Shown: positions 2,359 through 56,420, numbered from the stretch's first letter. The stretch: 64,000 bases of DNA from Candidatus Omnitrophota bacterium (GCA_945877765.1 CAMDWQ010000001.1:86253-150252), one strand, 5' to 3'. Program-made: numbers and translations. Notes: generated from the sequence alone by a model not told the origin.

Positions 2359-2485
2359 GTCATTCCCGAAAGTTTTAATCGGGAATCAAACCTCTGATCA
2401 TGTCATTCCCGAGGGCTTTAATCGGGAATCAAACCTATGTATGATCCCCGATAAATAATCTCGGGGATGACACTGTGGGATGACA
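2359..2485. repeat. Cluster of 1.5 copies of a palindromic foldback (MITE/RPE-like) repeat
   Basis: Unit is gtcattcccga-N9-tcgggaatcaaacct...atgatccccgata-N7-tctcggggatgacactgtggg. Two short hairpins are bounded by an outer gtcat/atgac inverted repeat. The same unit recurs at 2849-2938, 42219-42286, 42778-42843, 47802-47829 and 56282-56378. Confidence 0.8.
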
Positions 2486-2561
2486 AACTATTCCAAGTCA
2501 TTTTATAGCATTAATATATAACACGAATAGCGCTGGCGCCACAAGACAAATATGGGCCGTC

Positions 2562-2822
2562 TTAAGTTTTTCTAGATAAATTACGAACAAACGCCACTAG
2601 GAGCACGACCGCAACTACCGGAATGACGACATACACAAAAAAGAAGACAAAGAACACCAGCAATCCGACCCCCAAACAAATCCCAAAAATCTTCGTCAGG
2701 AAATTTTGAGGCACCACAAAACTGGACGCTTTGGGCGTGGCGGAATAAGTATAACGGATTTCACCCTGGTCGGGTTTTTCGGGGTGTAATTCAATAATTT
2801 GTTTATTTTCAGACGAAGCCAT
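2562..2822 (-). CDS. hypothetical small membrane protein (86 aa, C-terminal hydrophobic helices)
   Basis: ORF flanked on both sides by copies of the foldback repeat. It contains a strongly hydrophobic stretch LGVGLLVFFVFFFVYVVIPVVAVVLLVAFV. No recognisable family. Confidence 0.4.
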   Translation of the reverse strand: MASSENKQIIELHPEKPDQGEIRYTYSATPKASSFVVPQNFLTKIFGICLGVGLLVFFVFFFVYVVIPVVAVVLLVAFVRNLSRKT

Positions 2823-2848
2823 TAGAGCCCTCTACATCATTCCTACCT

Positions 2849-2938
2849 GTCATTCCCTATGTCATTCCCGAAAGTTTTAATCGGGAATCAAACCTGCACA
2901 TGATCCCCGATAAGAGATCTCGGGGATGACACTGTGGG
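2849..2938. repeat. Foldback (MITE/RPE-like) repeat copy
   Basis: Near-identical to the 2402-2480 unit: gtcattcccgaaagttttaatcgggaatcaaacct...atgatccccgataagagatctcggggatgacactgtggg. Confidence 0.8.
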
Positions 2939-2953
2939 TACTAGTAGAGACAT

Positions 2954-5423: not shown

Positions 5424-5437
5424 CAATATTGTATAGT
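5424..5437. promoter_or_regulatory. Perfect 14-bp palindrome ATACAATATTGTAT in the aconitase upstream region (candidate operator)
   Basis: Seen directly. It lies about 200 nt upstream of the acn start, between acn and the DUF3800 gene. Function is not established. Confidence 0.25.
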
Positions 5438-7900: not shown

Positions 7901-8000
7901 TGCGCACCAATAGGTTGATATAAATTAACTTGTGTTAATTATGCCATATATTATATGCGCATTCAAATTCTCTAGGCGAGTCTTCAAAACCCCCAGCTTC

Positions 8001-9791
8001 TTACGCAGACTGTTCCGCCATGCGGGCGGCCTGAGAAAGGAGTCGTAGGGCGTTGTCTAGTTGCAGGAGAGGCAGAACCACGTAATGACTCAGATTGGGT
8101 ATCTCGTCGCCTTTCAAGGCTTTAATAAATGCCGCAATGTTACCAATCTTATGTCCCAAAAGAGTCTCGTAGACGCGAACTAACCTCTCGAAATAGCCCT
8201 TTCGCTCAGGAGTCAGCTCAGGAACTCTCGCCGCAAGCCTTGCGGCTCGATGAACGGCAGGATGCATAATGTCATTTTTATCCAATACTTTCACTATAAA
8301 GTGTCGAGCGGGGGTCTTGCCAATGATAGGCAGTTTGGCGGTGATTACTTTACCATCTTTAAAGCCGTCCATAGAAATAACTCTCACATTGTCTATGTCA
8401 TCCTTGTAGGGTTGGGGCAGGTCGGCTGGTTTGCTAATAAAAAGCTTCTGAACGTCAACCGGTAGATCATAAACCTCCGCCATCGCCTGTTCAATTTTCC
8501 AAGAATCTCCACCAAACAGCACTACAAAATTGGGATCCTGTTTCTTTTCCAGAATATAACGCCTTAACAAATAAGTCAGGTTGGGACCAAAAGCCTCTTG
8601 TGGAAGAATATTAAGATCAAATATCTCTACCACTTTAGTCTGGGTGATAGATTCGGGGAGGTCCTCGAAGAATTCATTGACACTTCTATCAGCCTCACCC
8701 AGCATCCTCGTGTAGTCGGACATCGGTAGCTTCACCTGGACTTTCTCAGGACTCAGCAAATCAGTCCCAGCGGGGATAATATTCTTGGGATTAATGACGC
8801 GGGGCATTCCTAAGCCCTTGAGCCAATACCTGCCCTGAGCATCAAGCACCACATGTAAAAGGGTGTCACCCACCACTATATCCCCGGCCCTGGTACGGTT
8901 TTGTTCTCTGATCACGCGCGCAACAAACGTAACTAATTCGCTTTCTTGGGCGGCGGTGCGAGTACTTGTTGGGATAGAAGTAGCAGTAACTGGTTGGGTT
9001 GTAGGGGCAAGACGGGCGGCAGTCGCCACCACTTTTCTAACAAGAGCAGCTTCTTCACCGTCGACCTCAACAAACTCAAATTTCTTTCTAAAATCCGTGA
9101 GATTATTTGGTGCATTGATTGCAATAAACGGATCACCCGTCACCAGCCCCCCATCTGCCATCATGCTATAAAGCTTATCCCACACCGCATCCAATCGATC
9201 TTCCCAAAGCTCGATACGAATCACTCCCGATGCAAAAATCAGTTTAAACTGAGTACCGGTGGGGGGCTCATAATCTAAAATATTATCTCTGACCAAAGTA
9301 ATCCTAGATTTTACGTCATCTTCCATGCGAATAAACGCCCGGATTCTTTTAATTGTATTCTGTAAATCAACATCCAGCGACGTGACGTGAGTCGCCTGGG
9401 CATGCTCTATGAAATACCGCGTTTCGGAGAACCCATCACCCTCCCCTAGCACCAACACGCCGTTATTGAATAAAAGGTTCTCGAGATTATCCAAAGCCAA
9501 GCTCTTTAAATATGCGCTTATGGTTGATTCGAAACGAAATAGCGACATAAAAGACCCTGAACCATCCTGTAGAACGGACGCAGAACGGTCGAGCTCGTCG
9601 TCAGTACGTCGGGATAATTGCACGAGAGTGGCTTTTTCGGTCAGAACATACTGCCTTGAAGCGCTCTCATAACTGACGCTAAAAGCCTTGCGTTTGTTAT
9701 CCCAGCTATCAACGTGTTGGGCATCACCACAACAACAACGAATCCCGTCAATAGTGTTGTCGCCGATGTCTTTCGTCTGACACCCCTGCAC
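8001..9791 (-). CDS. hypothetical two-domain protein; N-terminal class-I SAM-methyltransferase-like fold, C-terminal domain of unknown function
   Basis: VLVLGEGDGFSETRYF (GxGxG motif I), VTSLDVD (acidic end of beta-2) and FKLIFASGV (beta-4) fit a Rossmann methyltransferase. A low-complexity linker ATAARLAPTTQPVTATSIPTSTRT follows, then roughly 330 aa with no recognisable family. The track start is a GTG, so the true start is probably internal. Confidence 0.45.
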   Translation of the reverse strand: MQGCQTKDIGDNTIDGIRCCCGDAQHVDSWDNKRKAFSVSYESASRQYVLTEKATLVQLSRRTDDELDRSASVLQDGSGSFMSLFRFESTISAYLKSLALDNLENLLFNNGVLVLGEGDGFSETRYFIEHAQATHVTSLDVDLQNTIKRIRAFIRMEDDVKSRITLVRDNILDYEPPTGTQFKLIFASGVIRIELWEDRLDAVWDKLYSMMADGGLVTGDPFIAINAPNNLTDFRKKFEFVEVDGEEAALVRKVVATAARLAPTTQPVTATSIPTSTRTAAQESELVTFVARVIREQNRTRAGDIVVGDTLLHVVLDAQGRYWLKGLGMPRVINPKNIIPAGTDLLSPEKVQVKLPMSDYTRMLGEADRSVNEFFEDLPESITQTKVVEIFDLNILPQEAFGPNLTYLLRRYILEKKQDPNFVVLFGGDSWKIEQAMAEVYDLPVDVQKLFISKPADLPQPYKDDIDNVRVISMDGFKDGKVITAKLPIIGKTPARHFIVKVLDKNDIMHPAVHRAARLAARVPELTPERKGYFERLVRVYETLLGHKIGNIAAFIKALKGDEIPNLSHYVVLPLLQLDNALRLLSQAARMAEQSA

Positions 9792-9871
9792 CGGTCACGG
9801 TGATTTAACACATCAGCCTTGCTTTTGTAGGATCCGGAATTTTAAAGCTCTTGACCGGTCTCAAGACGAAT

Positions 9872-10552
9872 TTAGTTTTTTGGTTGCCTATAGGATTTTC
9901 CCTCCAGTGTTAAAAAAGTTCCTTTAAGATTCAATCTGTCGAGAATTGCTGTGGCTGTCGCAGGGTCAAAGATCTTGCCCCACTGAGAAGGAATGAGATT
10001 GGTCGTCACAAGGGTAGATCCGATCTCCGAGCGTTTGGAGATGATCTGAAAGATATCGTTGGCCTCTTCCAGAGACGGGAATACGTAGCCCAACTCATCT
10101 AGGCACAAGACTCTGACGCTTGCGTAGTACTGTATAAGGCTGTGTTTACTCCTGGAATTCTTGAGTTTTCCCACAAGATCGAAGCAACTGATAAAAATCG
10201 CTGTTTCGCCCTCCTGGATCGCTTGGTAACAAAGCGAGGTGGCAAGATGTGTCTTTCCCACCCCTGCCGGACCCACCAGAACGAGATTCTTGGCCTGCTG
10301 TATCCAGGGGGATTTGGCAAACTCCAAAAAAGATTCCCTTGGAAGCTTGGGGCTCATCTTCCAGTCGAAGTCTTGAAGACACTTGATTCTTTTGATGCCT
10401 GAACGATTCAGAAGGTATTGGATCCTCCGGCATTTTCTCTGACGGCACTCCTCCTCAAGGATGGGTGTTAGTGCTTTTATATCCTCTACAGAGAGGTCTT
10501 CGGGGTTTGATACGAACTTCAAGTCCTTCCAGAGTTCAGTTATTTTGGTCAT
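9872..10552 (-). CDS. istB: IS21-family helper ATPase IstB
   Basis: Walker A VLVGPAGVGKTHLA, Walker B VLCLDELGY and the IstB_IS21 family throughout. Start placed at internal M (MTKITELW), which overlaps the istA stop. Confidence 0.9.
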   Translation of the reverse strand: MTKITELWKDLKFVSNPEDLSVEDIKALTPILEEECRQRKCRRIQYLLNRSGIKRIKCLQDFDWKMSPKLPRESFLEFAKSPWIQQAKNLVLVGPAGVGKTHLATSLCYQAIQEGETAIFISCFDLVGKLKNSRSKHSLIQYYASVRVLCLDELGYVFPSLEEANDIFQIISKRSEIGSTLVTTNLIPSQWGKIFDPATATAILDRLNLKGTFLTLEGKSYRQPKN

Positions 10553-11963
10553 ATTCTTCAAGGCTCCTTGGTTGGTAGTGAATATCAAGAAGTTTTTGGT
10601 CGCTTGGGAAGACTTGGTCCGGATCTTTCTGTGCTGGCAGATTCAAAAGGCTAAGAAGAGCTTTTGTTTTATAGGTCCCCATAGACAGAAGTTCGGCAAC
10701 CGCCGAGACCAAGACAGAACGGTTGTGGTTTTTAAGGAGCTTAAAGATCTGATAAGCGCATTCAAGGCGCGCCGAATCATCCTCTCCCTGGGCCCTTAGG
10801 AACTTATAAAACACTGGCTCCATGGATTCGATAAGCCTAAGGATCCTTTGACGCTTAAAAAGAGGGGTTCTATTTAAAAGACTCTCTATGTGAAGAGGAT
10901 TCTGGAATATTTTGTGTTTTTCAAAAGATCTTTTATGCCGTGCCACAATTTTTGAGGCATGCGTAATCTCGATTCTATCCGGATAAATCAAAAGCCCGCA
11001 AGGCTTCTGGGCCAAAGAGGATGGGACGGAGTAGCGATTGGTTTCAAACTCGACAAGTGCTGTTTTTGAGACCACCCCTTGCGCGATTCGCCGCGGCGCG
11101 AACTCGATGCTGGGAAGTTTTAAAAGATTTTCTGATTTAAGCATGTCCATAGGCATCTTACCGGTGGAGCGGTGTATCAGGCTGTTGCGTCCTACAAGCC
11201 ACAGCCTGAAGCACTCGTTTAGGTCTTGGGCGTTTTTAAAAACCTGCCCGTATAGAAAGGAGGCTCTCACATCGCGTCCTAAGCGTTCGACTCTGCCTTT
11301 CTCATTGCCTTTGTAGGGATTGCAGGCGTGGATCTTGAATCCGTAGTGTCTGGCGAATTCCAAGAACTGCGGATTGTATTCGATCTTTTCCGGTGTGTGC
11401 TTTAAAACAACGCTCTTTAGATTGTCATACCGGTGGGTGCGGGCAAGACCGTTTAAGTGCTTGAAGCATTCCAGGTGTCCGTCTAAAAAGAACTCAAACG
11501 ACGTCTTGGGATAAAACTTCCCCCAAGCATATCTGGAATACGAGAGTACGTACAAAAAGAGAGCGACCCGTCCCACATTTTCAAGGTCCGCGAAGAACCA
11601 GTCCACCTGGGCCTCCTCTGAAGGCATAAAGTCCAGGGCATAATAAGTGACAGGCTTTTTTACTCTCCAGGATCTTGTGAAGCGCTCCACACTTGAGAGA
11701 CTACCAGCATAACTATATCCTTGGAGTCTTTTGTAAATCTGAATCGCCTGAAGGCGCGGATACTGCCGGTACCACTCATCCAGAAGATGCCGGTAAGCTT
11801 CCAAGGGTGAGGATTTCTGAGGATTTTGAGAGGGACACTGTTTATCCAGGATGCGTTTTAATCGCCTGTATCCGATATGAAGATGTCCGATCACCTGGCG
11901 GCGGCTTAACCGTTCGACGTCCAAGAGGTAGAGGATTTTTTCTTTCAGCGAGGTATCGTCCAT
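10536..11963 (-). CDS. istA: IS21-family transposase IstA
   Basis: 475 aa with an N-terminal HTH followed by a DDE integrase-core region. Typical IstA size and position upstream of istB. Confidence 0.9.
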   Translation of the reverse strand: MDDTSLKEKILYLLDVERLSRRQVIGHLHIGYRRLKRILDKQCPSQNPQKSSPLEAYRHLLDEWYRQYPRLQAIQIYKRLQGYSYAGSLSSVERFTRSWRVKKPVTYYALDFMPSEEAQVDWFFADLENVGRVALFLYVLSYSRYAWGKFYPKTSFEFFLDGHLECFKHLNGLARTHRYDNLKSVVLKHTPEKIEYNPQFLEFARHYGFKIHACNPYKGNEKGRVERLGRDVRASFLYGQVFKNAQDLNECFRLWLVGRNSLIHRSTGKMPMDMLKSENLLKLPSIEFAPRRIAQGVVSKTALVEFETNRYSVPSSLAQKPCGLLIYPDRIEITHASKIVARHKRSFEKHKIFQNPLHIESLLNRTPLFKRQRILRLIESMEPVFYKFLRAQGEDDSARLECAYQIFKLLKNHNRSVLVSAVAELLSMGTYKTKALLSLLNLPAQKDPDQVFPSDQKLLDIHYQPRSLEEYDQNN

Positions 11964-12110
11964 AAAGTCCTTATTTTTTCTTCTTTGTTTAGGGCGGAGG
12001 TCTTTTTTCCGTCACGATTTGTCCAAGGTTGTACATCGCCTGTCCGAAAGGCCGAACGATCCTTGGCGTATGACCCAGATCCTGGCATGCTCTGCCATAT
12101 TCGGTATATC

Positions 12111-12220
12111 GAGTTTGTTTTTTCAAACGCAGATGCACCCACCCTGATCGCGTGTTTAAGAAGCATCTATCGCTTTTGTTTTCAAGTACTTCCAAGAACA
12201 TTGAGTTTGTTTTTTCAAAC
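12111..12220. repeat. Pair of 18-bp direct repeats (gagtttgttttttcaaac) near the istA-proximal IS end
   Basis: Exact copies at 12111-12128 and 12203-12220, seen directly. Consistent with the reiterated terminal repeats of IS21-family ends. Confidence 0.5.
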
Positions 12221-12827
12221 AGCTTCTGGCTACGGATGCCTCTCATACGCAGTCTTGTGTCTTGGCGATTTTTGAGTGTTATCTTTGGATGATTAGCCCG
12301 GTAGCGCTTTCGATAATCGGGATGGCTTAAAAACCACTGCCGCGTGAGATCTTGCTGGTAGGTGAGGCAGTCGGGATTTTTGAGGTACCACCTTCGATTG
12401 TTTTGGCTATTGCGTTTGGATTGGCAAGAAGGACGGCCACAGCAGTGTTGCCGGTCTTTCTGGCGGCAATCCGGATAAAACATCTCTCGACAGATACGGC
12501 AAGTACGTTTACGGCGTCTCATAGCATCCTCACCCCCTTATAAGGGAAAGAATACTGGACTTTAAAGCAGGTTATCTCGGGAAGGAGGGGCTCTTCATCT
12601 TATCCACAGAATGAAGAACAGAGCTACTACTGAAAATTCTTTAACTAAAATCTAAAACACAACCCCGATAACACCCTGCCGGGATTCGTTATCATTTCTA
12701 TTACGCCCAACAATGATTTAGGGCAGCGCGCAGACGATGACCTTATTTAGGGGTGAGGCGCTAGGGCAGGTTTTGTTAATGATTACGTGACGATTTAGGA
12801 AAAATTTTCTGAAATAAAAAGGAATTT

Positions 12828-13325
12828 ATGGGCAGGCAATCATACTCAAGCCGTCTAACAACGAACGACTGCAAATCCATCTCTGTGAAGTTCTTGAAAA
12901 GTAACCTCTATTTCTATAAGGGCGGTTCCGACGGGATGAAATGGAAAAATACTAAGGGCGCAGAGACGGGGAGTATTGGTTTTTCGGTGTCCATGATTGC
13001 CGGCAACGAGCATATCCGGCTTGTGTATACAAGGGTAGTCGATTTTTCTGGAGAGAAATTCGATCTTGATTACACCGTCCGATTGAGCTCAACGCCTTGT
13101 TACTTCGGAGGCAGACGGTGGTGGTTTCGATGTCCACTAGAGGAGGATGGGCGGGTCTGCAATCGTCGTGCGGGGACATTGTATCTAGCTGGAGACAAAT
13201 ATTTTGGGTGCAGGATTTGCTATAACCTCACCTATGAAAGCTCACGGGATAGTCATAGATTTGATGGTGTGGTCCAGAGGATGGGGTATGCAGACTATAA
13301 GATCTTTAAAAAAATACTTAGATGA
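12828..13325 (+). CDS. hypothetical Cys-rich protein (putative zinc ribbon; CYFGGRRWWFRCP...CNRR...YFGCRICY)
   Basis: 165 aa, good RBS (aaaaggaatttATG), 4-nt overlap with the downstream HTH gene. No family recognised. Confidence 0.5.
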   Translation: MGRQSYSSRLTTNDCKSISVKFLKSNLYFYKGGSDGMKWKNTKGAETGSIGFSVSMIAGNEHIRLVYTRVVDFSGEKFDLDYTVRLSSTPCYFGGRRWWFRCPLEEDGRVCNRRAGTLYLAGDKYFGCRICYNLTYESSRDSHRFDGVVQRMGYADYKIFKKILR

Positions 13326-13522
13326 TGGATAAACTCCTAACCCCCAAACAACTCAGCGAGCTTTTGCAGGTCGATCAAAGCACCGTTTATTGGTGGTCGC
13401 ATACCGGCTTTATCCCGCATATAAAGATTGGAAAACTTGTTCGGTTTAAAGAAGTAGAGGTTGAGGAATGGGTTAAGCAGAGATCAAGACAGGGAAGAAA
13501 ACAGATAAAATATAATTCCTAA
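13322..13522 (+). CDS. AlpA/excisionase-family helix-turn-helix DNA-binding protein
   Basis: LTPKQLSELLQVDQSTVYWWSHTGFIPHIKIGKLVRF matches the Xis/AlpA MerR-like HTH (PF12728-type). 66 aa. Confidence 0.75.
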   Translation: MMDKLLTPKQLSELLQVDQSTVYWWSHTGFIPHIKIGKLVRFKEVEVEEWVKQRSRQGRKQIKYNS

Positions 13523-13644
13523 TATTCTTAAGTACGTATAACATTTGCTTTTTATCAAAGAAGTAGCTAAACTACTTATATAACAATATCTAAGTTAATA
13601 AGATTTAGTACATTTATTAACAAATTTAGCAAAAGGAAAAACTT

Positions 13645-13929
13645 ATGGGATTAATTTCAGTTCGCTGCTATGTAACCATTGGATCCTTTTCTACTGAGTA
13701 TATTGTTCAAGTGAAAGACGGAAACGATTTAAAATGGGAAGGGCCTGTTAGTAGAAAGATGGTTGATATAACTCAAGCAGTAAAACCAGAAGAAGCTGTT
13801 TCCGGAAGAATTAAAGCTTATCTTATAAACTCTGATGAAAAATCAGGGTTGGTAGAAATGCCTAATGATAGTTGGGTTCATGGAAGCAGAGTTAGAATAC
13901 CTCGTGCCTTGTTTGAAACAGCTAAATGA
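13645..13929 (+). CDS. hypothetical small protein (94 aa), translationally coupled to the downstream dCTP-deaminase-family gene
   Basis: Strong RBS aaaaggaaaaacttATG. Stop overlaps the next start (ATGA). Lies in a very AT-rich stretch. No family recognised. Confidence 0.45.
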   Translation: MGLISVRCYVTIGSFSTEYIVQVKDGNDLKWEGPVSRKMVDITQAVKPEEAVSGRIKAYLINSDEKSGLVEMPNDSWVHGSRVRIPRALFETAK

Positions 13930-14513
13930 TTCTTAGTGATATAGACATAAAACAAGCAATTAAAGCCAAAGAAATTATCATTGATCCCCTCCCAGATGAA
14001 ACCCAGTACGGGTCTTCGTCGCTTAATCTTATAGTTGGAAACGAATTTAAAAAGTGGAATCCCGCTCTATTAGGATCTGGAGGCACGAAACCCAGTCACC
14101 AAATACTAATTAATTTTATGGATTTTAATTATTCAACATTTTCAAAAAATTACCTCATTGATGTTCCGCTTGAAAGTGATGGTAGTATTATTCTTGCGCC
14201 AAATGATTTTATGCTTATTCTTTCAAGAGAATATGTTGAATTGCCACGAGAGGGATTGCTCGCAGCCAGAGTCGAGGGTCGGAGCACAATGGCCAGATTA
14301 GGGTTTACAGCGCATCTCTCTGCCCCTACAATCCATGCGGGTTTCGGCGGAAACATTACCTTAGAAGTGAAGAATTTTGGCCCATTTCATATAAAACTAA
14401 CTCCGGGGAAAGACCAAATCTGTCAGTTGATTTTTGAAAAAGTTCAATCCATTGCCGAAAAGACTAATTCTACAATTTTTCAAGGGCAAAAATCAGTCAC
14501 TGGAACTAAATAA
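13926..14513 (+). CDS. dcd: dCTP deaminase family protein (Dcd/dUTPase-fold)
   Basis: Aligns by eye with E. coli Dcd. [21 protein letters not shown] matches [33 protein letters not shown] matches [46 protein letters not shown] matches [34 protein letters not shown]. Confidence 0.85.
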   Translation: [195 protein letters not shown]

Positions 14514-41252: not shown

Positions 41253-41298
41253 GGCAAGGTCTCCTTTTCTATAGGAAGTATACATATAAATATATACT

Positions 41299-44200: not shown

Positions 44201-47200
44201 TAGAATCTTTATTGTTGGATCCGCAGAGCGCTTCAAATCAATCATTTTTTTTAAAAATATCCAAGGATGTCACTTTTGGTCTAGAGCCCAGCGCCCGGAA
44301 TATTGTTGAGGGCATTTACATTCAAGAGGACATAGATGTTGACCAATACTATCAAGACGTTTCCAACAACTTCATGACTTTCGAAAATGTCGGCGCGCGG
44401 TCGGCGAATAGTTTAAGCGACCAGATTAATTCTATACAGATTGATCAAGCTTTAGAAGATCAGGCTGGGCTGATTCGTGATGTCTTGCAAAAAGCCATGA
44501 CCAATCTTTTTGAGGTTGACTCTCCGGAGTATTTACGCGTTCTTGAAAGCCTGAAAAAACTAAGGTTTATGCGAGCGTATCAAAAGCGCGGTCATGAAGG
44601 TGCCAGCAGCCACTATGTGCCTAATTATATTTCTTTGATGTCATTCGCCGATGAACATACGATTATTCATGAATTCGGCCATCACCTAACCTATGCTTTA
44701 AAATTAAATGATCCAGTATCTGTGATGGGAAATATCACCGAAGCTGTTTATGATGCGGGAGAAAATCAACGTGATCCTACACATTTCCAAATCGGGGCAA
44801 AGTTTGTCGATGATTTTTCAGCGGAAAAAATTACCGACCCCGAATTCAAACTGCAAATAATGCGGCTTTGGAGTGAACGCGAATATAGGGAGGGGCCTAT
44901 GGGTGATATCAAGGAAGCATATACCTCGGCAACTATTCTCGCGGGCATTCTCTATGAACTAAATGGCAGAGATAAGAGAAAAGCTATGAATGCCGCTATT
45001 CACCTTTCTAAAGAAGACTGGTTCACGAGAGCGCTTGCCGTGGATCGCAAGCTTGAATTTTTTAAAAATTTGGCGAGTCTTGGATTAATCGCCCCGCTTG
45101 CGATGGGATCCTACAGAGCTGCATTTGTTGCCTATCGAGCGACGAATTCGGTTTTATATGGAGCCCTTGCTTTTATGGTGCCCATTATTTCTGTGCTGCC
45201 TTTTTTATTTTATTTAGGCCCAAAACTTTTTACTTACTGGGAAAACAAATTTTTTCAATCCATTGATTGGGGGCCTCCTTTTGTTGTGAACGCTAAAACA
45301 AAAGCGACTTTGTTGCAGGCCGAGGGACCAGAGAATGTGGGGGCGCGGTTGGCAGTTAGAGATGAGTTGGCTGGTGAAATCTCTCGCGGTGAATGGGATT
45401 TATTTGAGAGGCGCTTCGAAGCTTATGACAGGGACACATTACTTAGTTTGCTTACAACCTTAAGCCAAATGGCTCACGATTCAAATAAGAATGTGACGAC
45501 TGAGATTTCTGGGGATGCCGCGAGAAGAATATTTGGGATTCTGTCGGATTCATATCTAATTGAGTATTACCAGGATCCCTTCATCATGGCTTGGTATACG
45601 ACTCTTGCCCAATCCCTGATGGTTTTGATGCCTGACCAGGGTGACGAGAATACTATACTCGCGCGAAAAACACACGAGGAAACCACAGAGATGGTTCTGA
45701 TATCTGTGCTTGCTCATGTCAAATTTTCAGATCTATTGAATAGGCTGGTTTCTGATTTTGAGCCTGTCCGCCACCGTCGAGTTGTCCAGGCATTGTTCAG
45801 CAAATTTGAAAGTGAAGATGAGAGCGCAGAGGATATCGTGAGGGTTTTGCAGGATGATTTCACAGGTGGCCATATGTTCCGGCTATTTTTATTTATTTGG
45901 CAACATTTTGACCAGCCATTTGCCCAAAGCGTCGCAAGGCTTTTGAGGAAATTAAATAGGTATTTAAAGCTTATAGGTCAAAGTGAGGCGATGTTGTTGG
46001 ACGCGCAGATTGAAATTTTTAGAAGCGCTCTGTTTTCTGATAATGTAGCTGAGAGAAAAATTGCGATCGCCTTCTTTAGTGAGTTCATCCAAGGGGGTGT
46101 CACCGATACGCCTGAATTTGTAAATCGCTTGAAGAAATTGTACTGGAGCGTGGCGGAAAGTCTTGATATTTACGATCAGAGTACGGCGTCATATATTCGG
46201 AATATATTATTTTCCCAAACACATTCAATTGATGCCGCCGACTTAAAGGAGCTGGACGCTGATAGACTTGATCACCACCGTTTGGAATATCGAGATCAAG
46301 GGGTTATCGACATGGTTTTATATCATCTCTATGACTCTTTTGGTTTCGACATTCGAAGAAAGGAAATACGCGAGCAAATCATTGCCAATACCTATTTTTC
46401 GGACATCCTTGATATCGTTCTGACCAATCTTTCCGACGACGATTCCCCTTTTGCCGCCAATTTTAACTATGCAACTAAACTACTGGCCCTTAGAGAGCTT
46501 TTTGGTTCTCGAGGTGAAGGTATGACCCCGACTGGAGCCCAGGAGATGATTATCGACATCGTAGTGGATATCACGGCGGAGAGGATGGATGATGCCGCGC
46601 GGCTTGCCTCGCTAAACATTCCCTCCGGCTGGAAAAGATGGGCGCCGGCTGGGGCGGTGGTGATGGGACTTATTTTTTCGTCGAAGGGTAATACCCTTTC
46701 ACAAGTTAATCAACAGCCTGCGTCAGCGGTTGCTCATGATGGAGTCGGGGCGCCTGAGGTAAACAGCCTTAAGCAAATATTCAAAGTTGCTGGTGGCCCT
46801 ATGAAGAGCGCAAATGAATCTGATATCCTCAACATCGACAATGAATCGGTTCAATTGATCACCCGGTGGTATGTGGGGATGCACGGAAACACGCAGGGTC
46901 CAGCCTCTGTTATGATACAGACCAAACACGCGCTTATTACCTTTGTCCATGAGGAGGGAGATCCGGAGATTCAGTTTCGCGATGTGGCTAATACAGCGGA
47001 GATTCTTGGACGCATTCCTCTTTCTGTGGACATGCTAAATGCCGCTAAAACTGCCAATGAAGAGGCGAAGGCGCTTCCTACCGAACAAGTTATGAACGTT
47101 GAGGCCGAAGCTCTCGCGGCCGCGGTTAAGACAAGAAGTATTAATCACCTGGTGGTTAAGCGCCTATTTCCTTGGATACTCAAAAATATTTTAGAGGATC

Positions 47201-47784
47201 AGCAGGTGGTGATTTTCCAGGCAATTGACCGTGATCGTATCAGTCAAGATCCGATCGCCAAGGCGCAAATGGACCTTATCGAAGCGACGATCAAATCCAT
47301 CCAAAATTTGCTTGGCGAAGAAAAGAAAAAATTCGTTCATTTTGTATTTACGGATCCAAAGGGAGTTGCACAATCAGATGTATCTAGATTTAACTCCAAA
47401 GAATTTAGAAAGATTTATGTCGCCCAGCCAAACACAGATGTTCTCCATCAGGCTTATCTTGCGCAAGCAGGATTTTTTGCGTTACCGGACCTGTCCAAGG
47501 GAGATGGTGTTGTTCCACTACAAGCCTTGTATTCGGGAGCGCTTGGTGTGGCTTTGTCAGAAACAATGACCGATCCGCTAGCCTGGAGCCTGAATAAATT
47601 AATTCGTCCGGACTCTTCGTCAACACTGGATCCTCAAAAAGACTACCCAAGACTCAAACAAGTGACTAACGAGAAGGATAGAGATTACTTTGGGAATCTT
47701 ATGATCAGGCCGCTTGCTATCAATATTCAGGCATACCTCACCGCCGCTCGCTTGGCCATCCAGTATGTGGAGAGCGCGGCTTAA
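41299..47784 (+). CDS. giant secreted protein B (2161 aa); shared N-terminal module, HEFGHH zincin motif, two in-frame foldback-repeat insertions
   Basis: N-terminal signal-like LIRHISLVLIATFLCQELSYSA. The real start is possibly the TTG at 41410. Motifs IHIQDAHSN, LVEGGGTDG and ITGGYHTSHL. HEFGHH at 44668-44685. Hydrophobic hairpin around 45080-45240. Confidence 0.8.
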   Translation: MSIVEKFAFYLFISHILCIVKQSYVWGSLGYKQGDFVLNNRSLLIRHISLVLIATFLCQELSYSAPAILTPAALSDSVASFQAPTEFCSLKEFHQGQVGKPLIIHIQDAHSNLSGQENLAKTLDQIMTKYSVSTVLVEGGGTDGTLDPLKQLASPEIIRRIAKKLLIEGKLAGEEYLNLTSDHPMKIQGIEDMTLYKKSVENYAKLADRREAIQDYLSVIERSAEKLKRKLYPQELISYEAQKQKDTDGALGFKFKELLSLAKLKEVEITNFPNLQKLSALEEKEKSIDFNLANLEQAALMEKINTTSSPKSLIGDQTKYDSRLKLSGMTVDQFTFFRNILNIAKEKNIATEEYPNLLRYFNYLKDFTDLDLEEVLNEFEHLEDKVYVAWLPKEDSRLLRAIDRYLALLKIAYRIQMSTKDFEFFKANEPDFSTASYQAFLNRKLIELGYFEDVIPYKNILEEGKKALEDFYDSVSQRDLAFIQNTKRILGDSVIPAKAGIRSSLGADSRFRGNDNANIAVLITGGYHTSHLKKLFQQEGFSYVVLTPIVTAETNQKKYENLLLSSVRKESKTIEVVQGESKQNKTSVQLDVDLLKIAKKEGARFAGAVMTPARLAQTLESFGGLNDRALNTIQKEFAARLANNISEETKTPAATRLANEPIASSNNPSRLGLVALTLNLRVALWKLSLYSGFSFGRLQTFSWLEKNDQGYSNSYWLSPRKTATWQGKQVIPNSRLRKSGIQLHTLALTLLDLMDQGLSDPLKEELFRLLEKSVAQHNLLAQSEHDPGAKMSLPLLLVRATSVLIRPDSNYVRLSRAMMQAPKRFLKPIAILQLRAKQIHLNFIYLSPDIVDFYASHEAIKFILEPENIEDPKLKSALIGFLAGVFKKKTWQDLAKMVEEYGLGEFDVNSDDSKAMFDDFKTLLKKHDIQMVNWMKSQALSTGLERIGVQFLPYLELSRLLTSHSENLESLLLDPQSASNQSFFLKISKDVTFGLEPSARNIVEGIYIQEDIDVDQYYQDVSNNFMTFENVGARSANSLSDQINSIQIDQALEDQAGLIRDVLQKAMTNLFEVDSPEYLRVLESLKKLRFMRAYQKRGHEGASSHYVPNYISLMSFADEHTIIHEFGHHLTYALKLNDPVSVMGNITEAVYDAGENQRDPTHFQIGAKFVDDFSAEKITDPEFKLQIMRLWSEREYREGPMGDIKEAYTSATILAGILYELNGRDKRKAMNAAIHLSKEDWFTRALAVDRKLEFFKNLASLGLIAPLAMGSYRAAFVAYRATNSVLYGALAFMVPIISVLPFLFYLGPKLFTYWENKFFQSIDWGPPFVVNAKTKATLLQAEGPENVGARLAVRDELAGEISRGEWDLFERRFEAYDRDTLLSLLTTLSQMAHDSNKNVTTEISGDAARRIFGILSDSYLIEYYQDPFIMAWYTTLAQSLMVLMPDQGDENTILARKTHEETTEMVLISVLAHVKFSDLLNRLVSDFEPVRHRRVVQALFSKFESEDESAEDIVRVLQDDFTGGHMFRLFLFIWQHFDQPFAQSVARLLRKLNRYLKLIGQSEAMLLDAQIEIFRSALFSDNVAERKIAIAFFSEFIQGGVTDTPEFVNRLKKLYWSVAESLDIYDQSTASYIRNILFSQTHSIDAADLKELDADRLDHHRLEYRDQGVIDMVLYHLYDSFGFDIRRKEIREQIIANTYFSDILDIVLTNLSDDDSPFAANFNYATKLLALRELFGSRGEGMTPTGAQEMIIDIVVDITAERMDDAARLASLNIPSGWKRWAPAGAVVMGLIFSSKGNTLSQVNQQPASAVAHDGVGAPEVNSLKQIFKVAGGPMKSANESDILNIDNESVQLITRWYVGMHGNTQGPASVMIQTKHALITFVHEEGDPEIQFRDVANTAEILGRIPLSVDMLNAAKTANEEAKALPTEQVMNVEAEALAAAVKTRSINHLVVKRLFPWILKNILEDQQVVIFQAIDRDRISQDPIAKAQMDLIEATIKSIQNLLGEEKKKFVHFVFTDPKGVAQSDVSRFNSKEFRKIYVAQPNTDVLHQAYLAQAGFFALPDLSKGDGVVPLQALYSGALGVALSETMTDPLAWSLNKLIRPDSSSTLDPQKDYPRLKQVTNEKDRDYFGNLMIRPLAINIQAYLTAARLAIQYVESAA
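42219..42286. repeat. Foldback (MITE/RPE-like) repeat copy embedded in-frame in giant gene B
   Basis: gtcatccccgaaatctttaatcggggatcaaaccaagtatgattcccgattaaaactctcgggaatgac. Translated in the gene frame as SSPKSLIGDQTKYDSRLKLSGMT. Confidence 0.8.
42778..42843. repeat. Variant foldback repeat copy embedded in-frame in giant gene B
   Basis: gtcatccccgcgaaagcggggatccgttcatcactcggtgcagattcccgctttcgcgggaatgac (two GAAA/TTTC-looped hairpins). Translated as VIPAKAGIRSSLGADSRFRGND. Confidence 0.8.
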
Positions 47785-47801: not shown

Positions 47802-47829
47802 GTATGATTCCCGCTTTCGCGGGAATGAC
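47802..47829. repeat. Half-copy of the variant foldback repeat immediately 3' of giant gene B
   Basis: gtatgattcccgctttcgcgggaatgac. It generates the spurious antisense ORF 47620-47868 (TPGVIPAKAGI). Confidence 0.7.
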
Positions 47830-47954
47830 ACCGGGAGTTGTTCGGACTACAACGGACAAGCCGATCAATCAATCACTGAGTAGTTTTACTCAGTCATTGA
47901 GTAATATTGACAACGCGGCAGTAGCCCAAAATTTATTGCATGCCGGGCTATTTT

Positions 47955-48692
47955 CTAGGGAAGACTTCTTTCGATCTCGGTAAGAAGTGTGGATTTAAAA
48001 TTTTTAAGCAACACATGCTGGCCAGTGGGCAAGAATCGCTTAAGTTCGCTTCGTATATCGAGTTTTTGGCGGTCAATCATGGCTAGAAGTTTCGTCTTCA
48101 ATGTTTTATCCTTCGAAAAAGTTTCCTTGAACGCCATGCGGCTTCGCAAGATAAAATAAACGTCGTAGAAATCCCGGGCTTTGGCGCGGGTCAGGCAAGC
48201 TTGAATCTTCTCGGCAACCAATCTCTTTTGGTCAAGATGCACCAACGTGTAAGGCGGCAATAAATCTGAATTGACCAGAGAGGCGACACCGGCATCTTTT
48301 GGCTGGGCTCGAAGAGAAACTTCCACTTGAATGCCGCTTTCGTATTCGTCCGTTTTGAAATGGAAAATGGCAAGATAGCCGCCGGATGTTTTCTTGGATT
48401 CTTCGATATCTGTTTTAATCCCTTCGCTTTCAATCTTTTTCAGGACAGCTTCCATCAGCGATTCAATTCCGGCGATGGAAATTTTTGAACCCGTAAAATC
48501 CAGATCCTCGGAAAATCGGGGACTTCTCCAAACAAGCCGCAACGCGGTTCCTCCTTTGAAAAGAAGAGATTCGGATTTCTTTTCCTGATACAGAAAAGAA
48601 AGAAAAAGGTGCTGGAGGTATTCCCTCACAACGTTATCCATTGTCGTTTGGTAGCGATCCGAAAATTGTTTAAGAGTTTTTGCCTCAATCAT
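47955..48692 (-). CDS. abiEii: AbiEii/AbiGii-family nucleotidyltransferase toxin (DUF1814, type IV TA)
   Basis: LLFKGGTALRLVWRSPRFSEDLDF is the nucleotidyltransferase motif of AbiEii. 245 aa. 4-nt overlap with the upstream AbiEi gene. Confidence 0.85.
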   Translation of the reverse strand: MIEAKTLKQFSDRYQTTMDNVVREYLQHLFLSFLYQEKKSESLLFKGGTALRLVWRSPRFSEDLDFTGSKISIAGIESLMEAVLKKIESEGIKTDIEESKKTSGGYLAIFHFKTDEYESGIQVEVSLRAQPKDAGVASLVNSDLLPPYTLVHLDQKRLVAEKIQACLTRAKARDFYDVYFILRSRMAFKETFSKDKTLKTKLLAMIDRQKLDIRSELKRFLPTGQHVLLKNFKSTLLTEIERSLP

Positions 48693-49282
48693 AGAATGCT
48701 CTTTACAAGTTTTGTGAGGCTTTTTCTTTTAAAAAAATGGGCGTAAGAAAGTACCGACTTTTTATTGATGTTTCGGAGATTCAACCTCTCGTTTAGAGTT
48801 CTTCGCTTTAAATCAACGAAATAAAGGTAATCAATCAAGGCTTTCTCAGGCTCGGCAATGAAAATTACTCCTTGCCCTTTTTTCTCGGATCGATACCCTC
48901 GGTAGGCTTCGATTTTAATTCGGTAGTATTCATAGGATTTTTCTTGCGCTGTAAATTCCCTCGTGATTTTCGGCGTCGCTGAGGTGATTGTATAGACGGA
49001 TTCGGGGATGATACGGTAGTGAGCCAGTGCATACTCAAAAGATACGTAGGAAGGAAAATAAAGCCGGTTGGCTATTTCAAGCTCTGCCGGAGGATCCGAT
49101 TTAAGTCCATAGAGACCATTGCGAAGTTTGATAAAAATATCTTTCGTATGGTTCTTGATAAAAGCTTGAGCCGCCCATTCTTTAACCGAAAAAATACGAC
49201 GAAACTCTTCAGGTGAAAAGAGCCGGAGCCCCTTCGCCCTCAGTGTTTCCTGGACTTTTATAGGTTTCAGTTTTTGTGTCAT
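48689..49282 (-). CDS. abiEi: AbiEi-family antitoxin / transcriptional regulator
   Basis: 197 aa. N-terminal winged-helix-like region and C-terminal AbiEi_4-type domain. Canonical position upstream of AbiEii. Confidence 0.75.
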   Translation of the reverse strand: MTQKLKPIKVQETLRAKGLRLFSPEEFRRIFSVKEWAAQAFIKNHTKDIFIKLRNGLYGLKSDPPAELEIANRLYFPSYVSFEYALAHYRIIPESVYTITSATPKITREFTAQEKSYEYYRIKIEAYRGYRSEKKGQGVIFIAEPEKALIDYLYFVDLKRRTLNERLNLRNINKKSVLSYAHFFKRKSLTKLVKSIL

Positions 49283-49473: not shown

Positions 49474-49704
49474 ATGAGAAAAAGAAGCCATTCCGAAGTG
49501 ACCAAGCAAAAAATGAGCCGCAAAGCCAAGGGGAAAAACAACGCCATGTTTGGCAAGAAACACACCCAAGAGGCGCTCAAAAAAATTCAGCGGGCCAGCA
49601 AGGGTAAAAATAATCCGATGTTTGGCAAGACTCACTCGGTCGCCGCGCGCAAGAAAATCGGTTTGGCGGCCCGCAAGCGTTGGAGCCGGGTCAATTCCAA
49701 ATAG
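49474..49704 (+). CDS. small basic protein made of three NUMOD3 DNA-binding motifs
   Basis: Three repeats of the K-G-K-N-N-x-M-F-G-K-x-H-(S/T) pattern (GKNNAMFGKKHTQE, GKNNPMFGKTHSVA, RKAKGKNN...), as in homing-endonuclease NUMOD3 modules. 76 aa, no nuclease domain. Confidence 0.55.
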   Translation: MRKRSHSEVTKQKMSRKAKGKNNAMFGKKHTQEALKKIQRASKGKNNPMFGKTHSVAARKKIGLAARKRWSRVNSK

Positions 49705-51979: not shown

Positions 51980-51982
51980 AAA

Positions 51983-53776: not shown

Positions 53777-53802
53777 TTAAGCTCCTTTAGACGGCTGGCG
53801 GT

Positions 53803-54273
53803 TTAGTGGGAATGGCCGTGTTCGCCGTGCGCGTGGCCGTGTTCAAGCTCTTGCGCCGTGGCTTCACGAAGGCCTGTGATTTCGATCGCAAACGTCAAAT
53901 CCACACCTGCCAGCGGATGATTACCGTCCAAAGACACCTCGGTGTCATGGATTTCGGTGACGGTAAAAACCGGCGAGTGGTCGTCGGCGCCTCCACGGAA
54001 TTTATCCCCGAGCTTTATTTCTTGGGTCGGAAGGGAAGATTTGGGGGCCTTGATGATCAATTCCGTGTCTTTTTCGCCGTACGCATCAGCGGCGACGACA
54101 TTAATTTGTTTCTTATCGCCAATGTTTAATTGTAGCAATTCTTTTTCAAGTCCCGGAATAATTTGTCCCGCCCCCTCCATAAACGTAAGGGGTTCGCGGC
54201 CTGCGGACGAATCCATGGTGGCACCGAAAGCGTTGGTCAGTGTGTAATGGAAGGAAATCACTTTTGGGGTCAT
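53803..54273 (-). CDS. slyD: FKBP-type peptidyl-prolyl cis-trans isomerase SlyD-like with His-rich C-terminal tail
   Basis: MTPKVISFHYTLTN...FMEGAGQIIPGLEKEL is the FKBP/SlyD fold. The C-terminus ELEHGHAHGEHGHSH is a metal-binding tail. Start placed at the internal ATG at 54273. Confidence 0.85.
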   Translation of the reverse strand: MTPKVISFHYTLTNAFGATMDSSAGREPLTFMEGAGQIIPGLEKELLQLNIGDKKQINVVAADAYGEKDTELIIKAPKSSLPTQEIKLGDKFRGGADDHSPVFTVTEIHDTEVSLDGNHPLAGVDLTFAIEITGLREATAQELEHGHAHGEHGHSH

Positions 54274-54403
54274 CGACGTCTCCTGTTTATTTAACGGCGA
54301 TAATTCTACCACACAATCTTTTGGGGGAGGTAAGGCCTTTATTTGTAGGATTTTTTTGGGACGGGTGATAAAATACCGTGCATGTTCACCCGAGGGCATT
54401 CCG

Positions 54404-55120
54404 ATGCATAAATCTTTTTCAATTCTAAGTGCGGTGGTGTTCTTTACCGCTTTGTTTCCTGCGTCCGTCATCGCCGCTGAGGCTCCCTATTGTGAAGTCG
54501 TGCGTGTCGCTGGAAGTGTCCAATTAAACCGCCGCGGTCAGGCTCCGGCGGATATTCAGCAGGGCATGATGATTTTGAAAGGGGACAAGCTGGTTGTCTC
54601 GAAGGCTTCTTCGGCGGATCTTGCTTTTGACCCACAGTGGCAAAATGTCGCTCACTTAAATGAGAACACGCGCGTGGTCGTGCGCTATCTCAACCCCACC
54701 CGCCTTGAAATGGTGTCCGGCGATATTTATTCGAAGCTGGACAGCCTGCCGAAAGGATCTAGTTTTGAAGTCGTTACGCCGACCGCGATTGCTTCTGTGC
54801 GAGGGACCAAGTTTAGGACCACGCATGAAAAGGGGACAACGACCGTTTACAATGATTCAGAGACTTCTTTGGTTTACGTGTATCGCCTGGATGAAAACGG
54901 AAATCGCTCCGGCCGCGCTGTCGTTCTTAAGCCGGGAGAATCTACGACGTTGATTGGTGAGGTAGAGGTCTATGATTCTATGATTGAAGATCTTCAAGAC
55001 TCTCGTGACCGAGAGGACCAGGATCAGCTTAATGATGATCTTAAAAATCGCGTAAAAAATGAAGCTTCTTCTGGTGACGGTGAACAATTCGGAGACGGGG
55101 AAGGGGATACTCAGCGCTGA
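54404..55120 (+). CDS. FecR-domain protein (secreted)
   Basis: Signal peptide MHKSFSILSAVVFFTALFPASVIA. TAIASVRGTKF matches the FecR-family motif. Acidic C-terminus. Confidence 0.55.
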   Translation: MHKSFSILSAVVFFTALFPASVIAAEAPYCEVVRVAGSVQLNRRGQAPADIQQGMMILKGDKLVVSKASSADLAFDPQWQNVAHLNENTRVVVRYLNPTRLEMVSGDIYSKLDSLPKGSSFEVVTPTAIASVRGTKFRTTHEKGTTTVYNDSETSLVYVYRLDENGNRSGRAVVLKPGESTTLIGEVEVYDSMIEDLQDSRDREDQDQLNDDLKNRVKNEASSGDGEQFGDGEGDTQR

Positions 55121-56226
55121 TGCCTACAAAAAATTTGAAAATGAAGAAGCTGTTATTTTTAGCCCCCAAACTTTTAAAAACAGCAGGAGTCTTTGGGCTT
55201 CTAACAATTTTGACGGTCACTTCCGTCGTGGCGGCGAATCTTTCTGATGAAGAAAAAGCACAAAAGCGCCAGGATCTTGAGAAATTTTTCTCCAACGCTC
55301 TTATCCAGACCAAACCCGAGGCCGTCAAAAAAACCTACCAAACTTTACAGATGACTGGTAGTGGCTCCACTCGCTATGGTTATGACAGCAATGTCGATCT
55401 TGACAGCAGTGAAGAGGGTGATTTTTTCTACCAAGAGAAAATTGGCGGTAAATTGGAGTACGCGCCGGAGGGGGCCTCGCTTTGGGGGATGCCTATCTTA
55501 GGAGGCGTTGAAGGCCGCTATGATTATTGGGGGTACTTTGACCGCGATGATATGAATCGCCAGACGATTTACGGCGCGCCTTATCTTCAATTAAACATCA
55601 ACCAGGATTTGGAGCTTCAAGCCGCGTATGAGTTCCGGGCGCGCCTCTACGATACGCGTGATGATTTAAGTTATTTTTCTAACGGCGCCAAGACTTCGTT
55701 GACTCACCGAATTATCCCTGGCTTGACGCAAAAAGGCACGTTTAGCTACGAACGTCTGGATTATACGGATCGCGCCGCGCTTTTACCCGATGGAAATTTT
55801 TCAGCCAGCGACCGGCAGGATAACCGGTACGAAGCATCTTATGGAATTAGAGACCGGATAGGGCCTTGGACCATTGACCTAGGAGGAAGTTGGCTCTGGA
55901 ATGATTCCAACGATCAGTATTTTGATTACAATGATTTCAACGAAGCGGGAATTGACGGGTCCGTGTCCTACCGCGCGACAGAGAGACTAGTGTTGACCGG
56001 CTTCGGCGGCTGGCACAAAAGAGAGTATGACTCCCGTTTAATTTCGCCAGAGTTTACCACGGTGCAGAGTGACGATTGGTATTATGCCGGCGCAAGGGCT
56101 TTTTATGCCATCAATGCCTGGTCGGGCCTGGATGTGACTTTCACCTACTATCAAAATGACTCCAATGACCCCAACCATGAGTACGACTCCATGATTACTA
56201 GTGCTGGGTATCATATTTATTTTTAA
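55120..56226 (+). CDS. putative outer-membrane beta-barrel protein
   Basis: Signal peptide. Alternating amphipathic strands rich in Y/G/D. C-terminal ...GYHIYF ends in an aromatic residue, as OMP beta-barrels do. Start overlaps the FecR-like stop by 1 nt. Confidence 0.5.
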   Translation: MPTKNLKMKKLLFLAPKLLKTAGVFGLLTILTVTSVVAANLSDEEKAQKRQDLEKFFSNALIQTKPEAVKKTYQTLQMTGSGSTRYGYDSNVDLDSSEEGDFFYQEKIGGKLEYAPEGASLWGMPILGGVEGRYDYWGYFDRDDMNRQTIYGAPYLQLNINQDLELQAAYEFRARLYDTRDDLSYFSNGAKTSLTHRIIPGLTQKGTFSYERLDYTDRAALLPDGNFSASDRQDNRYEASYGIRDRIGPWTIDLGGSWLWNDSNDQYFDYNDFNEAGIDGSVSYRATERLVLTGFGGWHKREYDSRLISPEFTTVQSDDWYYAGARAFYAINAWSGLDVTFTYYQNDSNDPNHEYDSMITSAGYHIYF

Positions 56227-56227
56227 A

Positions 56228-56420
56228 GGGGGTCCAAATTTGTAACCCCTTAGCATTTCCGAACGATTAATGAGCGCCCATGTCATCCCCGAAATTTTTA
56301 ATCGGGGATCATGTTAAAGGGACAGTCTATGGATTATTTTAAGTATGATCCCCGATTAAAAATTTCGGGGATGACATTAGGGGGAGTTGTTCGGAGATGC
56401 TAAGGGGTTACCCAAATTTT
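56228..56420. mobile_element. Composite MITE-like element: roughly 33-bp terminal inverted repeats enclosing a perfect foldback copy of the repeat family
   Basis: ggtccaaatttgtaaccccttagcatttccgaac at 56229-56263 is the near-exact reverse complement of gttcggagatgctaaggggttacccaaattt at 56386-56420. The core 56282-56378 is gtcatccccgaaatttttaatcggggat ... atccccgattaaaaatttcggggatgac. The motif gggagttgttcgga is shared with 47827-47840. Confidence 0.7.

Follow-up and report, generated by a model that had tools for sequence, protein, structure and literature searches.

The 64,000-nt stretch of a Candidatus Omnitrophota bacterium genome analysed here (GCA_945877765.1, CAMDWQ010000001.1:86253-150252; hereafter the window) carries housekeeping genes for a pseudouridine synthase, a deoxyhypusine-synthase-like protein (DS) and aconitase, together with an IS21 copy, toxin-antitoxin genes and three giant paralogous genes. 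Dispersed among and within these genes are short palindromic repeats with GTCAT and ATGAC ends which, as judged from their sequence, belong to the class of hairpins that comprises the Neisseria Transformation Sequence (NTS) and the dRS3-like 'Ssn-related motifs' (SRMs), and which is associated with small GIY-YIG nucleases (Ssn) acting on single-stranded DNA (ssDNA).

Hairpin units in and between genes

An original prediction made from the sequence had listed seven copies of a foldback element built from two successive hairpins. All seven loci were found where they had been placed, although those at 2359-2393 and 47802-47829 proved to be single units and not full elements. The string GTCATYCCCG occurs 12 times on the two strands of the window (0.31 expected from dinucleotide-preserving shuffles, none of 100 of which reached 12), and a regular-expression search together with a hairpin scan returned exactly 12 hairpin units and no others. 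The basic unit is a hairpin of 25-30 nt, GTC-ATYCCCG-loop-CGGGRAT-C, which is oriented: a GTC head is followed by the stem ATYCCCG(A/C)...(T/G)CGGGRAT and by a trailing C. Nine units are of a type that we call A (GTCATYCCCGA-N9-TCGGGRATCA, with a 9-nt loop) and the other three of type B (GTCATYCCCGC-GAAA-GCGGGRATC, with a GAAA loop). All 12 have stems of 8 bp, begin GTCAT and finish ...GRATC, and reading the loci confirmed that the loops vary while stems and ends are conserved; the base directly 5' of GTCAT is a pyrimidine in every unit, the sole regularity of the flanks.

The units are laid out as five inverted pairs, unit(+)-spacer-unit(-), starting at 2402, 2861, 42219, 42778 and 56282, and as two single units or half-elements at 2359 and 47805. 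The usual pair joins one ATTCCC unit to one ATCCCC unit, like the flanks of the Ssn cassettes described below, and there is 88% identity between the 2402 and 2861 pairs. The longer extents predicted earlier for three loci (2402-2480, 2849-2938 and 56282-56378) take in short flanks, namely partial duplications of 13 and 12 nt and a common tail, ACTGTGGG. The units and the partial duplications are as follows.

2359-2388, plus strand: type A single unit, GTCATTCCCGA-N9-TCGGGAATCA, the first of a tandem run of 43-bp period with the 2402 unit; ssDNA fold of -6.9 kcal/mol
2402-2431 (plus, ATTCCC stem) and 2442-2471 (minus, ATCCCC stem): type A pair of 70 nt; foldback of -18.8 kcal/mol, z -5.7
2472-2484, minus strand: 13-nt partial duplication of the 5' end of the unit and its flank, which reads GTCATCCCACAGT on this strand; present once in the window
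2849-2860, plus strand: 12-nt partial duplication of the 5' end of the unit, GTCATTCCCTAT, directly 5' of the 2861 unit
2861-2890 (plus) and 2901-2930 (minus): type A pair of 70 nt; z -4.1
42219-42248 (plus) and 42258-42287 (minus): type A pair of 69 nt, or 23 codons, in frame in a giant open reading frame (ORF)
42778-42802 (plus) and 42819-42843 (minus): type B pair of 66 nt, or 22 codons, in frame in the same giant ORF
47805-47829, minus strand: type B single unit, 21 nt past the stop of the giant ORF
56282-56311 (plus) and 56346-56375 (minus): type A pair with a 34-nt spacer; foldback of -38.1 kcal/mol, z -11.1

The placement of the copies was also as predicted, two pairs lying inside the ORF 41299-47784, two clusters flanking an ORF of 86 aa, and the 56282 pair being nested in a 23-nt inverted repeat. 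The 2402 pair is intergenic, between the 86-aa ORF and the DS gene, and the 2861 pair has the aconitase stop on one side and the 86-aa ORF start on the other; the 56282 pair, whose arms (56280-56312 and 56345-56377) are 100% complementary, is again intergenic, upstream of the third giant paralog.

The two-hairpin architecture stood only in part. Folded as a full single strand, each pair is most stable as one long foldback of unit 1 against unit 2 (z -4.1 to -11.1), whereas the two-hairpin form is a local alternative fold. For the units themselves, the pattern scan left one stem pair (Y and R) unconstrained, and among 84 units that position was T-A in 34, C-G in 49, T-G in one and C-A in none; Watson-Crick pairing in 83 of the 84 shows a clear constraint on stem pairing.

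The two intragenic pairs are inserted in reading frame. That at 42219 encodes SSPKSLIGDQTKYDSRLKLSGMT in a variable linker of the giant protein, where it fills about the same length as the native sequence of other homologs, so that an accompanying deletion is likely. That at 42778 begins at a codon boundary and encodes VIPAKAGIRSSLGADSRFRGND; neither paralog has these 22 residues, nor do seven of 11 aligned homologs (the other four have unrelated insertions there), and relative to the paralogs the 66-nt insertion ends exactly at GTCAT and ATGAC. A giant-protein homolog of 42% identity contains two further pairs in frame, as seen at the DNA level in L314, and one of these occupies the linker equivalent to that of 42219. 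Six in-ORF units in other genomes, one of them in a histidine kinase gene, are all read in the frame that gives SSPxxxxGDQ, as is the 42219 pair; the in-ORF cases outside the window number seven in all. Both intragenic pairs, at 69 and 66 nt, have lengths divisible by three and no stop in the frame read; of the intergenic pairs (70, 70 and 94 nt), the longest is interrupted by stops in every one of its six frames and the two 70-nt pairs in five of six each. This contrast between coding and intergenic copies is what purifying selection on random insertions would leave.

In this respect the window copies are like the Rickettsia palindromic elements (RPEs), which are palindromic and persist in frame in unrelated protein genes (reviewed in PMC10969869). 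The likeness, which is one of architecture, lies in in-frame persistence and in the addition of short peptides at tolerated positions, whereas RPEs are about 100-150 bp long (PMC10969869) and have no demonstrated link to the window unit. Rickettsia is listed among the SRM-rich genera (PMC11893778). The in-frame survival of units inside giant and other genes goes beyond the published description of SRMs.

The repeat family is dispersed and did not arise by local duplication: copies occur outside the window, both in the same genome, which has one more pair some 3 kb outside the start of the window (L083 11904-11980), and in many others. The type A pattern gave at least 78 matches in a scan of 185,579 species genomes, where about one would be expected by chance (a uniform-base estimate for 19 fixed and two two-fold positions over 1.2e12 sites). 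The matches listed come from Omnitrophota, Planctomycetia-labelled metagenome-assembled genomes (MAGs), Nitrospirota, Ignavibacteria, Elusimicrobia, Bacteroidota, Desulfobacterota, Gammaproteobacteria and others; many of these foreign units stand a few nucleotides from a second, inverted unit, and complementarity often extends to the loops of both. A non-coding, dispersed family of this kind agrees with the earlier view of a structured element rather than a protein-imposed repeat. Comparison with relatives, which had been proposed as a check, points the same way: a related species whose DS is 93% identical has the same gene order, including a homolog of the small ORF, and no units in 7.7 kb. 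In a species at 88% DS identity the gene table gives a gap of 101 nt between an 82-aa ORF and the DS gene, compared with 232 nt in the window. Three Logan contigs (k=31) of the same population end inside units (L002, L093, L095), as fits a multicopy unit.

Hairpins of GTCATTGCGAGCG and GTCATTCTGAGG type adjoin units in four foreign loci (L029, L030, L048, L070), and two giant-protein homologs (P0005, P0007) contain peptides (for example RHSERSEES... and ...EILRFAQNDV) which we take to look like other palindromic repeats with a GTCAT head in translated form. GTCAT-headed hairpins may thus make up a wider superfamily, members of which frequently come to lie within coding sequence in these MAGs.

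Likeness to Ssn-related motifs and link to GIY-YIG genes

The NTS, CGTCATTCCCGCGMAVGCGGGAATCYRG, contains dRS3 (Chenal et al., 2025, Nat Commun, PMC11893778), and the same study gives a degenerate pattern for SRMs, HGTCWYN(0-2)YYVSBRHN(0-5)WNVSBRGN(0-2)RNCYNB. SsnA, a GIY-YIG protein of 94 aa, binds the hairpin as ssDNA only and not in its RNA form, and cuts it a few nucleotides upstream, the GTC head and the C after the palindrome being critical for cleavage as well as for binding; such ssDNA binding and cleavage have been published for the Neisseria and Wolbachia enzymes (PMC11893778). The ssnA homologs of many phyla are flanked by motifs of this kind, in an insertion sequence (IS)-like NTS-ssnA-NTS arrangement, and 19% of SRM-rich genomes are without an ssnA-like gene (PMC11893778).

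The dRS3 sequence, ATTCCC-N8-GGGAAT, is present exactly at 42821-42840 and 47807-47826 (0.02 expected), so that two of the 12 units qualify. Type B units differ from the NTS consensus at two to four positions (four in the 47805 unit), and two of the three match the SRM pattern, at 42777-42804 (+) and 42817-42844 (-), with a shuffle mean of 0.13; the third, at 47805, misses it solely through its 3' tail. The window units share with the SRM/NTS class an oriented hairpin with a (C)GTC head, a ATTCCCGCG...CGCGGGAAT-like stem and a trailing C within a short semi-palindrome (20-50 nt), in a class that reaches hundreds of copies per genome in many phyla and flanks, in inverted orientation, a single-domain GIY-YIG gene of about 94 aa. 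Unlike the published motifs, the window copies are for the most part tight inverted pairs, a 9-nt loop closed by a GA/TC pair is found in nine of the 12 units, and four of the 12 (two of the seven loci) are in frame inside coding sequence, compared with 2% reported for N. meningitidis. The exact dRS3 sequence, the company of other short modules and a rearranged junction (see below) also recall the dRS3 and Neisseria intergenic mosaic elements (NIMEs), although the phylum is another one, most units here have ATYCCCGA stems with longer loops, and neither RS elements nor an Nf phage were seen.

The association with GIY-YIG genes was evident at other loci. In an Omnitrophota MAG, one of the 78 loci retrieved (L039), a GIY-YIG gene of 95 aa (PF01541, E = 7.5e-16) stands between inverted type B units, and the same bracket recurs in contigs of four further homologs (L097, L098, L104-113), some with downstream tandem arrays of units of varying number. 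Of 80 metagenomic loci encoding the GIY-YIG protein, 58 are flanked by units on both sides; an upstream (+) unit is present in 67 and a downstream (-) unit in 65. Type A units, with the GA..TC closing pair and 9-nt loop, directly flank the GIY-YIG gene in three loci (L151, L163, L116), and similar units do so in L104-113. The flanked protein family is very large, with about 70% identity across phyla, and no named family for it was found in NCBIfam or the Protein Data Bank; in one homolog of 94 aa (P0071), Y6, Y17 and E64 coincide exactly with the positions that were mutated in Neisseria SsnA, likewise of 94 aa. In L163, a single locus, a gene-less pair of the same two units directly follows the unit-gene-unit cassette.

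A fragment of an Ssn gene, 25 residues in length, lies beside a type A unit in L039 (5731-5805), which suggests decayed cassettes. In IMG/VR, the type B pattern was found in at least 120 viral or proviral contigs (loci from L194 on), two of which also encode an Ssn-like protein (L224, L275), and the type A pattern had no match there.

Origin of the pairs and rival explanations

We consider it likely that the units are Ssn-class oriented ssDNA hairpins, and that the window pairs are gene-less derivatives of unit(+)-ssn-unit(-) cassettes, spread or maintained in trans. According to this proposal, which extends the published enzymology by analogy, the hairpin would form on ssDNA, and a single-domain GIY-YIG Ssn of about 94 aa would bind it sequence-specifically and cut a few nucleotides upstream. 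The ancestral arrangement would have been the IS-like unit(+) - ssn gene - unit(-), so that the foldback elements of 66-94 nt may represent the two flanking units minus the gene, and the single units half-elements; it is the gene-less pair beside the L163 cassette, together with the cassette-like combination of units, that leads us to read the window pairs as cassette flanks without their gene. An Ssn with its gene elsewhere in the genome would spread or maintain the copies in trans, arrays would grow and shrink locally through tandem duplication, and dispersed copies could serve as substrates for rearrangement. Within genes, presumably only copies that are multiples of three and free of stops would survive, as hydrophilic linker insertions of 22-23 residues. 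We infer that a cognate Ssn exists in this genome, that the pairs spread through its action and that the 5' duplications are scars of its cleavage; the repeats are presumably mobile.

Several observations weigh against this proposal. None of the nine type A units fits the published SRM pattern, the cause being the 9-nt loop and the A-T closing pair, although they nonetheless retain the GTC head, the stem core and the trailing C. A motif scan and tblastn of the 64-kb window, and of some 10 kb of additional contigs from the same population, returned no GIY-YIG gene. The long foldback that a pair prefers as a full strand would mask the single-unit hairpins that Ssn recognizes. Finally, the changes within the population comprise only the 43-bp tandem copy number and the junction in contig L001, with no insertion or excision observed.

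As to these changes, population contigs carry three or four units, spaced at a 43-bp period, at the site upstream of DS. In L001 the DS side is shared up to the element edge, after which come four tandem copies of GTCATCCTACAGT (13 nt; the window has one) and another neighbourhood. Either the genome has truly been rearranged at the repeat, or the assembly has been joined through a second copy that is nearly identical. Partial duplications of at least the first 7 nt of a unit directly upstream of it were found at 17 of 434 units, compared with three of 434 in the downstream control, and are possibly linked to cleavage upstream of the hairpin. They consist of the first 7-11 nt of the unit with 3-17 nt of upstream flank and occur in several lineages (2472-2484 and 2849-2860 in the window; L001 3968-4019, L083 11880, L314 1184, L153, L127 and L170).

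A stronger version, in which an Ssn-type GIY-YIG single-strand nuclease would move the gene-less pairs in trans, making them active non-autonomous elements, is conceivable but in our view doubtful. They would then be the GIY-YIG counterpart of the RAYT-REPIN and IS200/IS605 systems, landing repeatedly in permissive linkers of Omnitrophota giant proteins, where in-frame, stop-free versions would be kept as RPE-like protein-length variation, and the 5' duplications would be scars of cleavage and repair. To our knowledge, transposition by Ssn has never been shown. If Ssn does mobilize such pairs, it would provide a new enzymatic route to REP- or MITE-like repeats (see below).

The original prediction had likened the repeats to MITEs (miniature transposable elements with inverted repeats), repetitive extragenic palindromes (REPs) and RPEs. 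As a description of architecture this holds for the REPIN-like inverted pairs and the RPE-like in-frame copies; the units are not REPs, since they have no GTAG head and no RAYT, nor are they classical MITEs, since they have no target-site duplications and no DDE transposase that shares their ends. In REP/REPIN-RAYT systems, single palindromes and inverted pairs, recognition of ssDNA hairpins, a small gene flanked by its own sites, the lack of target duplication and mosaic clusters are all found. Were the units REPs, and the pairs REPINs mobilized by a RAYT (a domesticated IS200/IS605-type Y1 HUH transposase), this would account for palindromic singles, for inverted pairs that fold as one long hairpin without target-site duplication, for mixed clusters resembling bacterial interspersed mosaic elements and for the mainly intergenic placement. 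However, the head is GTCAT; no Y1 transposase is among the recurrent neighbours of the units in the 78 loci (Pfam covered part of the window ORFs), all-versus-all BLAST of the ORFs of these loci returning only housekeeping genes (IF-2, ABC ATPases, histidine kinases, UvrD) and no RAYT or transposase; and the gene that is consistently flanked, on both sides in 58 of the 80 loci, encodes a GIY-YIG nuclease and not a Y1 HUH enzyme. The window unit sequence, moreover, is common across phyla, whereas REPs are lineage-specific, and we regard a REP origin as very improbable. IS200/IS605 elements likewise have subterminal ssDNA hairpins recognized by a small nuclease or transposase, make no target duplication and give rise to gene-less palindromic derivatives, but neither TnpA nor TnpB is present here. 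REP/REPIN-RAYT systems are discussed by the authors who described Ssn (PMC11893778).

Slightly less probable still is a classical MITE, that is, a deletion derivative of an IS with a DDE transposase, which shares its terminal inverted repeats and moves by cut-and-paste with target-site duplication. Small, multicopy elements with terminal inverted repeats of up to 33 nt that are 100% complementary, in a window with an IS21 copy, would fit; but the search for target-site duplications that had been suggested came out negative, all five pairs being free of direct repeats in the flanks read, the 66-nt insertion has precise GTCAT and ATGAC ends when set against the paralogs, GTCATYCCCG does not occur at or near the IS21 genes (9872-11963) and no transposase recurs beside units. 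There is similarly little to commend a role at the level of RNA, as terminators, mRNA stabilizers or small-RNA genes whose function would account for the conservation. Copies just past stop codons (those at 2861, 47805 and 56282, which follow aconitase, the giant ORF and a porin-like gene, respectively) and strong predicted folds speak for it, whereas a T-tract is absent after every copy and no terminator-like sites were found in the three regions scanned, on which account intrinsic terminators were dropped. Scans of the window with Rfam (gathering thresholds) and ARAGORN gave no match; sequence as well as structure is conserved across phyla, copies lie inside ORFs, and the published nuclease does not bind the RNA form (PMC11893778). 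The units may still have a secondary effect on transcripts.

A somewhat better, though still improbable, case can be made for targets of recombination or integration, with the units acting as dRS3-like attachment sites for IS110/Piv-type transposases or filamentous phages, and as homology for rearrangement. dRS3 is a known target of phage recombinases (PMC11893778), the L001 neighbour differs exactly at the element edge, an IS110-family transposase adjoins one Ssn cassette (L107 1-705), and the type B pattern occurs in the IMG/VR contigs mentioned above; but none of the 12 window units has an IS110 element or a phage inserted at it, and the origin of the repeat and its link to GIY-YIG genes would be left unexplained, so that such a role is compatible with the Ssn-cassette proposal and not an alternative to it. 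Purely local duplication with no dispersed family can practically be set aside: the 2359 and 2402 units do form a 43-bp tandem run of varying copy number, and the 2402 and 2861 pairs are 88% identical, but copies are spread over 54 kb in differing contexts, a pair lies outside the window and the pattern is found in many unrelated genomes.

The assignment to the Ssn-related class places an anonymous Omnitrophota-like repeat family in a class described only in 2025 and little known outside Neisseria. Besides the in-frame survival inside genes, two features go beyond the published description. The long-loop unit type escapes the SRM search pattern, so that surveys with that pattern would undercount, and the tight inverted pairs resemble gene-less unit-ssn-unit cassettes, which supports the system being, or having been, a mobile element. 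In practice, the units break short-read assemblies and yield spurious or chimeric peptides in MAG annotations.

Neighbouring genes and accessory modules

Other features that accompany the repeats are as follows.

2562-2822, minus strand: predicted membrane-protein ORF of 86 aa, bracketed by two element clusters
41299-47784, plus strand: giant ORF of 2161 aa, one of three paralogs and host to the two in-frame pairs; no Pfam domain
47834-47846, plus strand: accessory module GGAGTTGTTCGGA beside the single unit 47805, repeated at 56383-56395 and, in a foreign MAG (L045), next to a pair
56242-56264, plus strand: left arm of the outer 23-nt inverted repeat enclosing the 56282 pair, 96% complementary to 56389-56411
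56389-56411, minus strand: right arm of the outer inverted repeat, GTTCGGAGATGCTAAGGGGTTAC, overlapping the accessory module at 56383-56395

The homolog of the 86-aa ORF in the related species (L315) has 82 aa and no units around it. That the ORF might be an integron gene cassette with attC sites was considered and dropped, as there is no integrase, there are no GTTRRRY core sites and the homolog in the relative is free of units.

The hairpin units are accompanied by another repeat module, GGAGTTGTTCGGAGATGCTAAGGGGTTAC, copies of which make up the outer inverted repeat round the 56282 pair and bracket a pair in another MAG (CAZBIH01, L045 718-742); the two modules thus travel as one mosaic.

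The giant paralogs, at 30907-40476 (3189 aa), 41299-47784 (2161 aa) and 56566-64000 (at least 2478 aa, running off the window end), have some 600 aa in common at the N-terminus, where the motif ...HIQDAH.N..GQ.N... is invariant, and a Pfam search of the giant proteins returned no domains. Named homologs of the giant proteins and of DS come nearly all from Candidatus Omnitrophota MAGs, and exact window proteins are found also in ENA and Logan metagenome contigs and in the NCBI MAG GCA_947444795.1. The 2161-aa gene is bracketed by two toxin-antitoxin-like pairs, at 40520-41285 (-) and 47955-49282 (-), which comprise a YhaV-like toxin (PF11663) with an upstream small ORF and an AbiEii toxin (PF08843) with a 197-aa partner.

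The IS21-family element (9872-11963, minus strand) consists of IstA (10536-11963; rve and Mu-transposase C-terminal domains) and IstB (9872-10588), and is unrelated to the hairpin repeats. The GC skew changes sign at about 8000-14000, with a cumulative minimum near 10 kb, and gene orientation switches from minus to plus near 12.5-12.8 kb, which may mark a replication origin or a boundary made by the IS21 insertion. Finally, a 76-aa ORF (49474-49704, plus strand) contains two NUMOD3 DNA-binding motifs (PF07460, E = 9e-22) and no nuclease domain, and looks like a remnant or stand-alone derivative of the DNA-binding module of a homing endonuclease.

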